The notes beneath the pieces are model-generated. The model was not told the origin of the DNA and did no database searches. It saw only the letters and a list, made by a program, of their open reading frames with translations. Position numbers and translations under genes: made by a program. From Candidatus Uhrbacteria bacterium CG10_big_fil_rev_8_21_14_0_10_48_16 (lineage in GTDB: Bacteria > Patescibacteriota > Patescibacteriia > UBA9934 > GWF2-40-263): a stretch of DNA of 64,000 nt. The stretch is from contig PFEU01000018.1 of NCBI GenBank assembly GCA_002793515.1, forward strand, positions 32,203-96,202. Reading direction: 5' to 3'. This document shows, piece after piece, positions 43,260 to 55,990 of the stretch (positions are counted from its first letter, which is position 1; the number at the start of each line of letters is the position of its first letter).

Positions 43260-44576
43260 CTAGCGCAGGATGGGGTGTATGCCGTGGGTGTTCACCGTGC
43301 GTGATACCCAGGTCAGGATCTGTTCGTCATGGACCGTGGTCCACACGACTCCTCCGTCGGAATCCATGTGGAGGTTCCAGGCAAGGGGAACTGCCGTCCC
43401 TCGATGCCCGCGGAAGTGTGGGACGTCGTAGATACCTTCGTGTTGGATGTGGGCTTGGATGCGACCATCGTTGCCGAGAAGGACCTCACGGACCTCCGTT
43501 CCAGCCGTTGGTGTCCAGTCGACGTTTGAGCCGACGAATCGACTCGTCGCGAAGCGTCTGCGAGCAGGATCCTGGATGATTCCTGCGACGACAGACAGTT
43601 CGTCTGGTGACCAAGCGACGGTTGCGGGGTCCAGGGTGAAGGACCCTTCGTGGATGACTTCCCCGGTACTGAGCGTCAGTCGACGCACATCCGGAGATGC
43701 TCCGCGGGGATGCGTGAGCATCAGGAGCGTTCCCCCCTTGGGAGAGGACCACACGCCGTGGAACTCCCCATCGATTGAAATCCGTTCAGGCTCTTCGCCG
43801 AACGCTCGACGGTTGAGCTCGACGAGCCAGGACTGCGTCCCGCGGTTGACCGCGAGCATCAGTCGGCCCTGCCAACGGACGAGCCCTGCTGAACGCTGAG
43901 CGTCCCCAGGGTTGACCTGAAGGAAGGAGGTGGCTCCGTGCTCCGTAGCCTGGTAGGCGTAGAGAAGCCCACCGAATGACTCAAGCACACACAGCGTGTC
44001 TTCTTCGCAGACGCGCACGGTTGCCCAAGCATCGACCGGCCAAAGTCCCCACGAGGTGAGGTACAGCTTCTGACCGGGATGCTGTGCAGACGTTCCGACA
44101 GGAACGCGGTTGGGCCGTGGGCCCACAGCGAATTCCAGTCGATCGAGTCGGTGAAGGAACTGACTTGCGTCTTGCGTGAGACGCCAGACTCCCGGCGGAT
44201 GACCTTCCACCCTTCCCCAGACGAGGAGGTCTTCACTCCCCACCCTGAGGATCCGTGTCCCACTTGCTCCCGGCCCGAAGGGACTAAGGAATGCGGGACC
44301 CACCGGACCGAAGGTGGAGTGATAGACGCGCTCGCCAGCAGGATAGGTGCGAATGACTTGTCCGATGAAGAGACCACAGGAACTTGCAACGAGCTGATCC
44401 CCGGAGATCAGCTGAAGAATTCTCAGCGGGGTAGCGGTCTCTGGGATATCGCCGACGCGGATCATCTCCCCCGTGAAGTCGGGGGTGTTCATCCGTACGA
44501 CGTGACTCCGGGGAGGAATCGTGGATTGATGCACGGGAACCTCCATTCTCAGTGGCACACAAGATCGTGTGGTCAT
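43260..44576 (-). CDS. hypothetical protein, GC-rich insertion (about 62% GC)
   Basis: 438-aa ORF with Trp/Gly-rich repeats suggestive of a beta-rich fold; no motif recognised; followed on its transcript by the hairpin GCGCcGACC-aaaga-GGTCtaGCGC plus U-tract at 43236-43270. Confidence 0.4.
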   Translation of the reverse strand: MTTRSCVPLRMEVPVHQSTIPPRSHVVRMNTPDFTGEMIRVGDIPETATPLRILQLISGDQLVASSCGLFIGQVIRTYPAGERVYHSTFGPVGPAFLSPFGPGASGTRILRVGSEDLLVWGRVEGHPPGVWRLTQDASQFLHRLDRLEFAVGPRPNRVPVGTSAQHPGQKLYLTSWGLWPVDAWATVRVCEEDTLCVLESFGGLLYAYQATEHGATSFLQVNPGDAQRSAGLVRWQGRLMLAVNRGTQSWLVELNRRAFGEEPERISIDGEFHGVWSSPKGGTLLMLTHPRGASPDVRRLTLSTGEVIHEGSFTLDPATVAWSPDELSVVAGIIQDPARRRFATSRFVGSNVDWTPTAGTEVREVLLGNDGRIQAHIQHEGIYDVPHFRGHRGTAVPLAWNLHMDSDGGVVWTTVHDEQILTWVSRTVNTHGIHPILR

Positions 44577-52299: not shown

Positions 52300-52665
52300 T
52301 CAGAGATGCGATGCGGGTGTGCTGTTCTCCTTCTCGAAAGTTGTGGGGACGTACCCCACCAGGATCATGCCCTCCGAGCACGTGAGAATATGCTCCTCAT
52401 GCGGGGAAAACATGAACATGACAGGAGCCTGGAGCTCACGCTCCTGAACACCGTCGACCTGTGTCCAGGTTCGAACCCGGCACCGCCCCTGGATGAGGAA
52501 GAACCCTTCCGCATGGGGATGGGAGTGGTTGCCCAGTTGCACTCCATCCTTCTGTGTGATGAGTACTTTCCCCTCCACCGTGTGCGGAAAATCCGCAGAA
52601 GGACGGAACGCTGTCAGCGTCCGCCTCTCGTCCGTATGACTGTCTGCCACAGGGAATATCTCCAT
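52300..52665 (-). CDS. cupin-domain protein, GC-rich (about 60%)
   Basis: Cupin motifs G(x)5HxH...E and P-G-x-x-H-x-H-x-N (HSHPHAEGFFLIQGRCRV; FMFSPHEEH); strong SD AAGGAAGGAA before the ATG. Confidence 0.55.
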   Translation of the reverse strand: MEIFPVADSHTDERRTLTAFRPSADFPHTVEGKVLITQKDGVQLGNHSHPHAEGFFLIQGRCRVRTWTQVDGVQERELQAPVMFMFSPHEEHILTCSEGMILVGYVPTTFEKENSTPASHL

Positions 52666-52973: not shown

Positions 52974-53010
52974 ACTGCAAACGACATTAGACAATTATCG
53001 CGCGTTAAGC
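52974..53010 (+). repeat. partial attC-like site 0 (ACTGCAAACGACATTAGAC...GTTAAGC) upstream of the first cassette ORF
   Basis: Shares the ACTGCA...(A/G)(A/C)(C/T)(G/A)TTAG(A/C)(C/T) pattern with sites A-C; GTTAAGC fits GTTRRRY. Confidence 0.25.
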
Positions 53011-53042
53011 GAAACAAGTGTGAACATCATATAATTCGATCT

Positions 53043-53822
53043 ATGTTTGGATTACTACGTTTTGAATATTACCTAGCAGGCAGACAGCTATGGTTTAGTA
53101 AAGCTGGACACTTATACTCTCCAAAACTAATGCTTGGCTATGCAATTGAGACAAGTCTTAAACATGGCCTTTTAATTATTGAGGATGCAGGAGTCAGCTT
53201 GGACCAAGATGCAAAAAGTATCCGAGGTAAAAGTCATGATTTAAAAGAGCTACTAAGCACATGTGTTAGATATAATCTCTTCTCAACAATAGATACTTCG
53301 GACGACTTTTTGGACTTTGCTACCAAAGGACTCAACAGCCGATATCCAAAACATATACGAGATAATTTTGATGAAGCTAGCAACAGAGATCCTTATTTAC
53401 TCACAATTAATGTTGGAGAAACTATAGGATACTATGATGATTTAATGCTCAAACTTGATGATGAAATCTGGTCTATAACAAATAAACCAGAATTTTCTGT
53501 TGGATTTCGTGGATCATCACAGGCAAGTTCAGCCACAGGGAAAATATTTTTTCATTGTAACCTTCCTGCAATGCAGAGACTTAAAAAGTACCATGCAACC
53601 GTATCAGAACATAGATCTCATCACGTTAGTGATATTGAATCACTGAATAAGGGGGAGGAATTTTTGTGGAAATATGAAGACCGGTCAACGATAAGTAAAT
53701 CTACTTCTTATGACTCATCAACATTCAAATATAAAAGTGTTGAAGAGACAGAGATTACACTTCACGATGGAACTAAAATTATTGATTATGGTCCGCAACT
53801 AAAAATGTGGTTTCACATTTAA
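53043..53822 (+). CDS. cassette ORF A: hypothetical protein (AT-rich island)
   Basis: 259 aa from MFGLLRFEYYLAG...; the track ORF begins at 52896 but would cross attC-like site 0; no SD; about 35% GC. Confidence 0.4.
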   Translation: MFGLLRFEYYLAGRQLWFSKAGHLYSPKLMLGYAIETSLKHGLLIIEDAGVSLDQDAKSIRGKSHDLKELLSTCVRYNLFSTIDTSDDFLDFATKGLNSRYPKHIRDNFDEASNRDPYLLTINVGETIGYYDDLMLKLDDEIWSITNKPEFSVGFRGSSQASSATGKIFFHCNLPAMQRLKKYHATVSEHRSHHVSDIESLNKGEEFLWKYEDRSTISKSTSYDSSTFKYKSVEETEITLHDGTKIIDYGPQLKMWFHI

Positions 53823-53826
53823 CTAC

Positions 53827-53883
53827 GCCTAACACTGCATATCCAAAATACTAGCTACTTCGGATCATGCAGAAACGTTAGAT
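53827..53883 (+). repeat. attC-like site A (57 bp): GCCTAAC-ACTGCATATCC...GGATcATGCAG-aaac-GTTAGAT
   Basis: The ends match the integron attC core consensus (RYYYAAC and GTTRRRY) exactly; the internal imperfect palindrome CTGCAT-ATCC / GGAT-c-ATGCAG carries one unpaired base. Confidence 0.5.
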
Positions 53884-53915
53884 ACCATACACCTTACCAA
53901 TTAAAGAAGAAAAAC

Positions 53916-54410
53916 ATGCAGGATTTACTCGAACAAATAGAAAAAGGGCTTGAGGCTAATCTTTATTACTTATCACTTTTTGTAGCCTTGGCTATTCCAG
54001 ATATATGTGGAGCAATTGACGCATCGGATGGCGAAGCTTCAAAAGCAAAATATATAAAATGGTTCGATGAACACTTACAAACCAAATATAGCACTTCGTT
54101 TAATGGTGAACTTTGCTATTATTTTAGGTGCTCGCTTCTTCATCAAGGTTCATCTCAACATTCGAAAAGTAGATACAAACGAATAATGTTCATTGAACCA
54201 GACAGAAGCATAAGAATTCATCGAAGTATTATGAATGATGCTTACTTCATAGACGTAAAAGACTTTTGTAATGATATGGTCGAAGCCTGCAAAGGATGGC
54301 TGCAAAAAGTGGAAACGACACCTTTATTCCAAACAAATTCTATTAAATTTATAATGCGTTATCCTCAAGGCCTCAAACCTTATGTTAGCGGAGTTCCAGT
54401 AATCGGCTGA
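53916..54410 (+). CDS. cassette ORF B: HEPN-like protein (Rx4H motif)
   Basis: 164 aa; N-terminal helix LYYLSLFVALAIPDICGAI and ...YYFRCSLLHQGS containing R-x4-H as in HEPN RNase domains; motif-level only. Confidence 0.4.
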   Translation: MQDLLEQIEKGLEANLYYLSLFVALAIPDICGAIDASDGEASKAKYIKWFDEHLQTKYSTSFNGELCYYFRCSLLHQGSSQHSKSRYKRIMFIEPDRSIRIHRSIMNDAYFIDVKDFCNDMVEACKGWLQKVETTPLFQTNSIKFIMRYPQGLKPYVSGVPVIG

Positions 54411-54416
54411 CACAGC

Positions 54417-54503
54417 ACTTAACACTGCATAAACGGTTACGCTTCATTTCTTTCCGCTTCGCCCATATTGATTCGCAACATCAGATATACGCAGACGTTA
54501 GCT
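54417..54503 (+). repeat. attC-like site B (87 bp): ACTTAAC-ACTGCATAAACG...ATATACGCAGAC-GTTAGCT
   Basis: The 5' end matches RYYYAAC; the 3' GTTAGCT is one mismatch from GTTRRRY; imperfect palindrome CTGCATA / TACGCAG with an extra G. Confidence 0.45.
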
Positions 54504-54608
54504 AAACTATCTCTTTTCTTTTTTAAACCATCCCTCCTTCACTAAGACTATAACAAACAAATACCAAATTATTTAAAAACTTAGTGAACGTCTTTTTTTA
54601 TCAATAAT

Positions 54609-54991
54609 ATGATGAAAGTAGAGTTTAAAAAATCTAAATTGCATGGCATTGGTATTTTCGCCATGGCTGATATTCAAGCTGATGAAATTATTGAAATCTG
54701 TCCAATAATAATGTTGAATGCAAAAGATACAAACGAGATCGATAAAACACATTTGTATGATTATTATTTCAGTTGGAGAGAACAAGGTTCTGCAATTTCT
54801 TTAGGATATGCTCACTCTATAATCATTCTTACGAACCCAATGCTAAATACGATAAAGATTTTGTAAACAATCGGATTGTTTTTACATCAGTTAAAACAGT
54901 TAAAAAGGGCGAAGAAATTACTGTGAATTACAATGGAGATCCTGATAAGAAAGAAAAGGTTTGGTTTGAAAAATCAGAATTGAATAGCTAA
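54609..54991 (+). pseudogene. cassette ORF C: SET-domain lysine methyltransferase interrupted by a +/-1 frameshift near 54808-54815
   Basis: Frame 1 gives the N-SET part (KSKLHGIGIFAMADIQADEIIEICPIIML...); the downstream frame gives LYNHSYEPNAKYDKDFVNNRIVFTSVKTVKKGEEITVNY, the NHSCxPN/ELxxxY SET core. The two halves overlap in DNA at ...ggatatgctcactctataatcat..., consistent with a single-base indel. Confidence 0.6.
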
Positions 54992-55053
54992 AGTGAACTC
55001 CAAGCTTGCTCCGTTTCACTCTGCAAAACACCGCAAATACTGAAATGTTAGCT
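54986..55053 (+). repeat. attC-like site C (68 bp): AGCTAAAG...CTGCAAAACACCGCAAATACTGAAAT-GTTAGCT
   Basis: The 3' end GAAATGTTAGCT is nearly identical to sites A (GAAACGTTAGAT) and B (AGACGTTAGCT); the 5' AGCTAAA pairs with the 3' TTAGCT. Confidence 0.4.
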
Positions 55054-55311
55054 GAAATATGTATACCCTAGAATTATCAAACCCTATGAAGTTTGAGATA
55101 ATTTATCTAAACGAGTAAACACACATCACATCATATAAGACACATAAAAAACTTCCGATGTTGGTTATGTTTTGTATAAGAAAAGCCCCGAGTGAAGTCG
55201 AGCAGTGGCTCTTCTCCACGCGGGGCGCGTGTCATCACACCGGTTCGACCTAGCTCATGCGTCCACTAGACGATGACTCCTCGGTCGAGTTGGTGTGGGG
55301 ATGTGGGTTGT

Positions 55312-55899
55312 CTACCCGTTGGCGTCCGCCTTGCTGGGAGCGTCGTGCTCGGCGAGGACGTCGTCCCAGGTGCTGAGGAAGATCTCGCCCATGTCGGGTC
55401 GGTAGATCAGGGCGTGCGTGGTCCAGAACTCGAGCGAGTCCTGGCGCTCGTTGGTATCGGGCTTGGTGTTGCACGGCTCGTTGGGAGCGATCACGCCCGG
55501 GTAGCAGGTGACGAGCATGAACTCATCAAGGAAGACCTTCTTGCCATCCTCCCACTTGAACTTCGGCTGAACGACGACGACCAAGGTCGAGACGTCCGGG
55601 ATGCTGTTCGTCGGGAGGAGGAGGACTCGACTGGGGCCCTTGCGCGGGCCCCGACGGACGAACTGGAGCTCCTCGTTGGTGTGAGAAGCGAGGGTGGTGA
55701 CCAGCGTCGCCGGAGCGATCGACCGGCCCATCTGGACCTCGAAGGCCTTCTTGTCCGTCACGTTGGTCAGGTCGAGTCCCCCGATGCATCCCTCGAAGAG
55801 GACGACCAGGTTCTCGTCTCGTGCCCAGTACTCCTGGGCGTTGGGGTAGGGAAAGACGGATGAACCGTCACGGGTCGTGTAAACGTCACCGAGAGGCAT
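55312..55899 (-). CDS. hypothetical protein, GC-rich insertion (about 62% GC)
   Basis: Likely start is MPLGDVYTT preceded by the SD GGAGGG; the track start at 55971 overlaps a terminator hairpin; followed on its transcript by the hairpin CGCGCCCCG...CGGGGC plus U-tract near 55200-55250. Confidence 0.35.
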   Translation of the reverse strand: MPLGDVYTTRDGSSVFPYPNAQEYWARDENLVVLFEGCIGGLDLTNVTDKKAFEVQMGRSIAPATLVTTLASHTNEELQFVRRGPRKGPSRVLLLPTNSIPDVSTLVVVVQPKFKWEDGKKVFLDEFMLVTCYPGVIAPNEPCNTKPDTNERQDSLEFWTTHALIYRPDMGEIFLSTWDDVLAEHDAPSKADANG

Positions 55900-55950
55900 G
55901 AAGCCCTCCTGTCCTCGACCAGGGATTGGCGAGAGACAAACCAAGGTATC

Positions 55951-55990
55951 AAAAAACAGGCCCTTTGTCAATGCATAGGCCTGTTTTCTT
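55951..55990. terminator. bidirectional terminator ACAGGCC-(15 nt loop)-GGCCTGTTTTCTTT
   Basis: 7-bp GC-rich stem with T-tracts on both strands, downstream of the ABC exporter. Confidence 0.5.

Follow-up and report, generated by a model that had tools for sequence, protein, structure and literature searches.

Two foreign genes in an integron-type cassette array

The locus studied here lies in a 64,000-nucleotide stretch of DNA (the window) from contig PFEU01000018.1 of a Candidatus Uhrbacteria metagenome-assembled genome (MAG; CG10_big_fil_rev). It holds two adjacent open reading frames (ORFs) on the forward strand, ORF A (53043-53822; 259 amino acids [aa]) and ORF B (53916-54410; 164 aa), separated by a spacer of 93 nucleotides (nt). 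They are identical to NCBI proteins COV05_04160 and COV05_04165, respectively, both of which are annotated as hypothetical. A preliminary description of this DNA had reported both ORFs and had called them AT rich, foreign looking, and devoid of Shine-Dalgarno sequences, and these points were all borne out. The GC content falls to 0.30 to 0.38 over positions 53000 to 55000, compared with about 0.45 to 0.56 in the flanks and about 0.48 in the genome, and direct reading of the sequence revealed no AGGAGG-type ribosome-binding site upstream of either start. Promoter and terminator scans were uninformative and gave no excess of sigma-70-type promoters; scans for promoters and ribosome-binding sites are uncalibrated for candidate phyla radiation (CPR) bacteria. 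Both genes are real and foreign.

The spacer between the two genes contains an attC-type recombination site (53827-53883, forward strand). This site is a 57-nt imperfect palindrome whose parts are arranged R''-L''...L'-R', as in an integron attC; R'' is GCCTAAC (53827-53833), R' is GTTAGAT (53877-53883), and the inner arms, ACTGCAT and ATGCAG, are complementary. When folded, the bottom strand gives a bulged hairpin (-10.1 kcal/mol; z = -4.11) that none of 200 shuffled sequences equaled, and the site was also recovered by an attC-pattern scan. ORF A is thus followed by the features that define an integron cassette, namely, R'' and R' core sites of the RYYYAAC...GTTRRRY type and an imperfect hairpin with extrahelical bases.

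Other cassette-like features surround the two genes on the same strand. Located 33 nt 5' of the ORF A start, a directly read, core-site-like GTTAAGC (53004-53010; GTTRRRY type) may bound the ORF A cassette on its left side, and no complementary partner arm for it was found upstream. On the 3' side of ORF B, a pattern match marks a second, weaker attC-like site (54417-54503; R'' ACTTAAC, R' GTTAGCT). This site has the features of a cassette end only in part: the core sites are present, as is an exact 12-nt repeat, TAACACTGCATA, that it has in common with the site between the ORFs, and there is no hairpin excess. Farther on, a SET-domain gene (54609-54991; GC content of 0.30) carries a frameshift that divides it into overlapping ORFs at 54609-54866 and 54773-54991, each with a match to Pfam SET. 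Next comes a half attC-like site (55027-55060, with GTTAGCT at 55047-55053), which shares 71% identity with the 3' half of the attC-like site at 54417-54503. The SET unit looks like a decaying third cassette.

The region from 53.0 to 55.1 kb is best described as a short integron-type cassette array in the Candidatus Uhrbacteria chromosome. Pfam searches of the ORFs flanking the array and of 30 further ORFs in the window returned housekeeping genes or unknowns and no recombinase or integrase; this negative result covers the scanned ORFs, and an integrase may lie elsewhere in the genome. By this measure, the array does not qualify as a complete integron, which would have an IntI tyrosine recombinase and an attI site beside it. 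Because no tyrosine recombinase is present among the scanned ORFs, the element is best called CALIN-like (cluster of attC sites lacking integron integrases).

Single-gene ORF B cassettes occur in other arrays

The closest homologue of ORF B (85% aa identity) occurs in several other metagenome assemblies (loci L006 to L009). There it is the first unit of an array with three or more additional attC-like sites, including two strong hairpins (z = -2.55 and -4.89), and its neighbors are a YgjV-like protein, a methyltransferase, and PPDK, with no ORF A present. In a nucleotide alignment of the window (53877-54424) with L006 (5960-6510), identity is about 85% over the interval bounded by GTTA (53877) and ACTTAACA (54424), and the two sequences are unrelated beyond these points. 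Since homology is confined to this interval, the mobile unit is ORF B alone, bounded by core sites.

The remainder of the downstream attC is wholly different in the two arrays, with 85 nt in the window and 131 nt in L006. The same ORF B thus has a different attC in each array, a departure from the prediction of the classical model, in which a cassette consists of an ORF plus its own attC. The window site at 54417-54503 resembles a different part of L006 (8098-8195). In both arrays, a small cupin is encoded just upstream on the opposite strand (52300-52665 in the window and 5351-5743 in L006, both on the minus strand). We considered the cupin as a conserved array anchor and dropped it because the two proteins are not related in sequence (BLASTP E = 22) and no alignment exists between the intergenic regions; its position beside both arrays is either a coincidence or a sign of a recurrent type of cargo.

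Textbook attC sites also lie about 10 to 20 nt after the stop codon of ORF B homologues in a Nitrospirae MAG (L012), a cyanobacterium (L030), a Chloroflexi MAG (L039), and a Desulfobacterales MAG (L066). Among 120 ORF B loci, these four have a directly downstream attC, compared with about one expected from the background; the background rate was taken over 982 kb because a reverse-complement control is invalid for the near-palindromic attC. In L066, the ORF B homologue is a 0.6-kb single-gene cassette within a four-site array. The arrays in L066 (476-3377; four sites) and L012 (565-1252; two sites) are clean attC arrays with ORF B homologues as single-gene cassettes and are useful as references for the family. 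The same cassette is thus found in different arrays with its ends at core sites (L006 to L009, L012, L030, L039, and L066). We consider it highly probable that ORF A and ORF B are independent cassettes and that they are neighbors by chance.

Neither gene has a conserved partner

The preliminary description had proposed that the two genes form a two-component toxin-antitoxin (TA) or defense pair, a claim that the comparative data contradict. As searched by tblastn, none of the 120 ORF B loci contained a relative of ORF A, and none of five ORF A loci contained a relative of ORF B. Within the window, the two genes do not make up one unit, as the attC site occupies the 93-nt spacer and the homology to L006 starts at the GTTA of that site. 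Because the attC site lies between the ORFs, their adjacency is not a sign of a functional pair; adjacency within a cassette array is not evidence of one. When the ORF B and ORF A families were compared by hhalign, no relationship was detected (probability of 0.9%). As judged from sequence, ORF A is a rare protein that is unrelated to ORF B.

The genomic surroundings of the two families were also variable. We clustered two genes on either side of each ORF B homologue and found no neighbor cluster across diverse genome loci; conserved neighbors occurred only within one set of closely related phage contigs. Neighbor strand was random (55:54), and the 141 immediate neighbors were mostly unrelated housekeeping genes, with a few mobile or defense genes (transposases, GIY-YIG, a resolvase, a Pycsar-type TIR, AbiEi, and Cas1). 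The relatives of ORF A in three other contexts have differing downstream genes (DUF4238, an unknown 151-aa protein, and thioredoxin), and no conserved partner is evident for this family.

The only small recurring neighbor of ORF B homologues is an FmdB-like zinc-ribbon protein (110 to 125 aa; MPIYEYxCxxC...), encoded directly 3' on the same strand in four deltaproteobacterial or planctomycete loci (L029 3969-4328, L047 3311-3688, L061 4516-4848, and L062 4504-4836). It is absent from the window and may be a partner specific to a subclade.

ORF A has a predicted HEPN fold

ORF A had been described as lacking any recognizable domain, which holds for sequence libraries. The protein has no Pfam match, PF05168 (HEPN) included, and nothing was found for it in NCBIfam or PADLOC; among eight homologues, one matched Pfam HEPN below the gathering threshold, with a best E value of 0.029. 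The predicted structure, in contrast, has a clear HEPN fold, formed by an N-terminal domain of about residues 1 to 150. The C-terminal third, an extra region of about 110 aa, has an unknown fold and could be a sensor or a regulator. Segments modeled with low confidence are residues 113 to 123, 211 to 220, and 234 to 259.

In an alignment of 17 ORF A members, R100-Y-P (53340-53348), at the end of helix 87-100, is invariant, and E36, K40, and H65 (53235-53237) are conserved in at least 90% of sequences. No His is conserved 4 to 6 residues after R100. E36, H65, and R100-Y-P thus correspond to a variant site. Such a site is known from the AF0298 (2hsb) family and AbiV, in which the motif Arg is accompanied by another conserved His on the N-terminal side of the motif (PMC3710099). 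The pattern of ORF A is alike on both counts, as the motif Arg is kept and the motif His is absent, with H65 located upstream. Judging from the structural models, ORF A is the better-supported HEPN-fold protein of the two, a point missed by the preliminary description. Its family comprises only 17 proteins in a collection of 5.8 billion sequences. Collections of phages and plasmids yielded no further relatives, and no nucleotidyltransferase is adjacent to ORF A.

ORF B belongs to a large family with HEPN-like features

The sole PHROGs match of ORF B is a full-length match to phrog_18591 (unknown function; E = 5.8e-39), and the protein matched nothing in Pfam, NCBIfam, or PADLOC. Its family is large, with 2,900 representatives of 50%-identity clusters recovered by profile search at an E value of ≤0.001 and 1,829 recovered at an E value of ≤1e-10. 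Most members are single-domain proteins of about 160 to 190 aa, and Pfam detected no fused domain in ten longer members (226 to 336 aa). The family spans many bacterial phyla, Pacearchaeota and Bathyarchaeota MAGs, temperate phages, and other cassette arrays, and it is present in 34 IMG/VR contigs, 43 records of cultured phages (Arthrobacter phages in 35 cases), and 12 plasmids.

The positions of the phage homologues, which are annotated as hypothetical (the match in E. coli phage ECP1 is unannotated), follow two patterns. In temperate Arthrobacter phages (35 records), such as GlobiWarming (L126 4001-4510), the homologue adjoins the integrase and is near the immunity repressor, and in IMG/VR contigs (L097 3992-4498 and L114 4001-4507), the holin and endolysin genes flank the homologue, which is on the opposite strand. 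Locations beside the integrase or repressor, or antisense within the lysis module, are typical of accessory genes expressed during lysogeny. These positions speak for an accessory or mobile character of the ORF B family.

ORF B had been called HEPN-like on account of its FRCSLLH motif (residues 70 to 76), a match to the Rx4-6H signature. The match alone means little, as the bare pattern is common: for every 164 aa, the genes in the window contain on average 0.31 Rx4H and 0.64 Rx4-6H sites, and one or more such sites occur in 35 of the 58 genes. The weight of the motif comes instead from the invariance of R71 (54126-54128) and H76 (54141-54143) in the family. In an alignment of 43 sequences with identities down to 25%, the invariant residues are L25, P28, D29 (54000-54002), W49, R71, H76, and W128, so that D29, R71, and H76 are the only invariant polar residues; R71 and H76 are also invariant in 40 close members.

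The AlphaFold model of ORF B (predicted local distance difference test [pLDDT] score of 88.8) has helices at residues 2 to 13, 17 to 25, 27 to 35, 43 to 61, 64 to 77, 114 to 132, and 136 to 146, with three strands (89 to 113) between helices 64-77 and 114-132. In this model, R71 and H76 sit at the end of helix 64-77, which leads into a loop and the beta insert, and D29 (within PDICGA) sits in the earlier helix 27-35. The predicted placement has the same layout as the active site of HEPN proteins, in which Rx4-6H ends helix 3 and runs into a loop and an acidic residue is located in helix 2 (Anantharaman et al. 2013, PMC3710099). The N-terminal hydrophobic helix of the preliminary description is present as a hydrophobic stretch (residues 16 to 34; mean Kyte-Doolittle score of 1.83), which is modeled within the bundle as a kinked helix (17-25 plus 27-35; pLDDT of about 95) that carries D29. 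We infer that this helix is probably buried and not a membrane anchor. A match of an ORF B profile to Cel6A in the PDB was rejected as spurious, being short and confined to the PDICGA helix. The model and the placement of the motif, together with a weak fold similarity, make ORF B plausibly HEPN-like, with no demonstrable membership by sequence.

Other ORFs of unusual composition in the window

Two ORFs elsewhere in the window stand out by base composition. A 219-aa ORF (55312-55971, minus strand) abuts the AT-rich array with a GC content of about 0.59, opposite in composition to the array, and is apparently foreign; it weakly matches phrog_23674 (E = 3.3e-6) and matches nothing in Pfam, NCBIfam, or PADLOC. 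A 438-aa ORF (43260-44576, minus strand) with no Pfam family lies in a patch with a GC content of 0.61 to 0.62 (43500-44500) in a genome that is otherwise at about 0.48, and it may have been horizontally acquired.

ORF B as a candidate stand-alone effector

HEPN proteins are already known as integron cargo, having been noted in 2013 and validated as phage defense in 2024 to 2026; neither ORF could be tied to the known examples by sequence. The "integron cassette HEPN" family (PDB 3jrt), proposed to be a stress-induced RNase (Anantharaman et al. 2013, PMC3710099), is the same as the present case in being a HEPN-type protein carried as cassette cargo. Esos and Taranis are single-gene HEPN cassettes that give phage resistance in Vibrio (V. 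cholerae) integrons (bioRxiv 10.1101/2024.07.02.601686), and an AbiU2-domain cassette of V. mimicus also gives phage resistance (bioRxiv 10.64898/2026.03.17.712381). These three and prophage HepS are validated single-gene HEPN defense proteins, to which the present genes are likened by description only; unlike the V. mimicus cassette, ORF B has no Pfam match to AbiU2 or Abi_C. The HEPN-MNT type II/VII TA systems (SO_3166/SO_3165, PDB 5yep; 7ae2) differ in several respects. The present locus has no MNT nucleotidyltransferase or conserved partner, the tyrosine of the RX4HXY motif is absent from ORF B (RCSLLHQG), and an attC site separates the genes. For the large family of ORF B, we found no Pfam entry and no description in the literature.

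The best explanation for the whole locus, and one that we hold to be somewhat probable, is that it carries two separate single-gene HEPN-like cassettes, with ORF B acting as a stand-alone RNase-type stress or abortive-infection effector. The stand-alone mechanism is proposed because ORF B is analogous to Esos, Taranis, the V. mimicus AbiU2 cassette, and HepS. By this analogy, ORF B would be a self-contained, metal-independent RNase, probably a dimer like other HEPN proteins, that would stay inactive until it is cued by stress or by a phage. Once cued, it would cleave RNA (tRNA, rRNA, or mRNA) and arrest growth, and it would thus act as a single-gene abortive-infection or dormancy effector. The ORFs themselves, the cassette boundaries, the independence of the genes, the conserved residues, and the similarity in fold are shown by the data, and we infer the RNase activity, the dimerization, the trigger, and the defense role; the chances that ORF B is a HEPN-type RNase appear about even, and phage defense as its role is a tentative suggestion on the doubtful side.

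Several observations weigh against this explanation. No HEPN family in Pfam was matched by 40 ORF B members at E values up to 10, two ORF B profiles gave no HEPN match in the PDB, and a Foldseek search of the PDB with the ORF B model found nothing (best E = 2.7). Because of its three-stranded beta insert, the model is not all-alpha. At residue 72, directly after the motif Arg, at least 90% of members have Cys in place of the usual polar N, D, or H, and D29, R71, and H76 are located here by their helix positions in the model, which makes contact among them putative. A defense-island context is weak, with only a handful of the 141 neighbors being defense or mobile genes, and a free-standing toxic RNase without an antitoxin would need self-inhibition. 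On the side of the array, the site at 54417-54503 folds no better than shuffled sequences (z = 0.14) and is therefore a degenerate or long-loop site, the third attC site likewise folds no better than shuffles, and no integrase was found in the scanned ORFs. For these reasons, the array may be a decayed relic.

Such decay is the core of one alternative, in which the cassettes are inert and ORF A and ORF B are neither expressed nor functional in the host. The missing integrase and the poorly folding sites after ORF B and the third unit would fit it, as would the frameshift in the SET gene and the lack of a sigma-70-type promoter excess or a visible ribosome-binding site, although the latter scans are uncalibrated for CPR bacteria. 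Both ORFs, however, are intact and full length for their families and keep all invariant residues. ORF B is 85% identical to a homologue found in several metagenome assemblies, and its differences from L006 fall, by eye, mostly at third codon positions, which suggests purifying selection. We regard inert relics as improbable. In another alternative, ORF B is not a HEPN RNase and is instead some other small helical bundle, in which the conserved Arg, His, and Asp would serve ligand or metal binding. It could, for example, be an enzyme that binds metal or resembles DinB, or a protein with an accessory or regulatory role carried by phages. The negative HEPN searches and the beta insert agree with this view and the HEPN-like placement of the three residues with the RNase reading; we consider a non-HEPN ORF B unlikely, if less so than a relic. 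A zinc-binding CCHH reading of CYxFRCSLLHQGSSQH was rejected because C67 and C118 are less than 90% conserved in the diverse alignment, and it is retained only within this alternative.

The two-component model, with ORF B as a HEPN toxin and ORF A as its partner or antitoxin in a TA or abortive-infection module, drew on the proximity of the genes, which are 93 nt apart on the same strand and both AT rich and foreign. It could also draw on the HEPN likeness that both proteins turned out to have and on the existence of two-gene HEPN systems such as HEPN-MNT. The comparative data already contradict it: a recombination site separates the genes, the closest relatives of ORF B are single-gene cassettes without ORF A, and the families never co-occurred in the loci searched (0/120 and 0/5). 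Moreover, ORF A is neither a nucleotidyltransferase nor any known type of antitoxin, and a family of 17 proteins does not match one of about 2,900 clusters in size. A module of this kind is very improbable.

The pair hypothesis, which was the source of the original interest in this locus, is therefore unsupported, and the two single-gene HEPN-like cassettes would be a plausible variation on a published theme. A bolder version is that the family of ORF B, very widespread and not described before, consists of stand-alone HEPN-like RNases. In this version, the beta insert might act as a sensor, and single-protein switches for dormancy or abortive infection would travel as minimal 0.6-kb cassettes, even in the reduced genomes of CPR bacteria; we think this possible but more unlikely than likely. 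Should ORF B prove to be an active RNase effector, the single-gene HEPN proteins of defense and dormancy would gain a large family that is so far unannotated. In CPR bacteria, a group on whose integrons we found little literature, attC cassette arrays would then be a means of stocking such genes.
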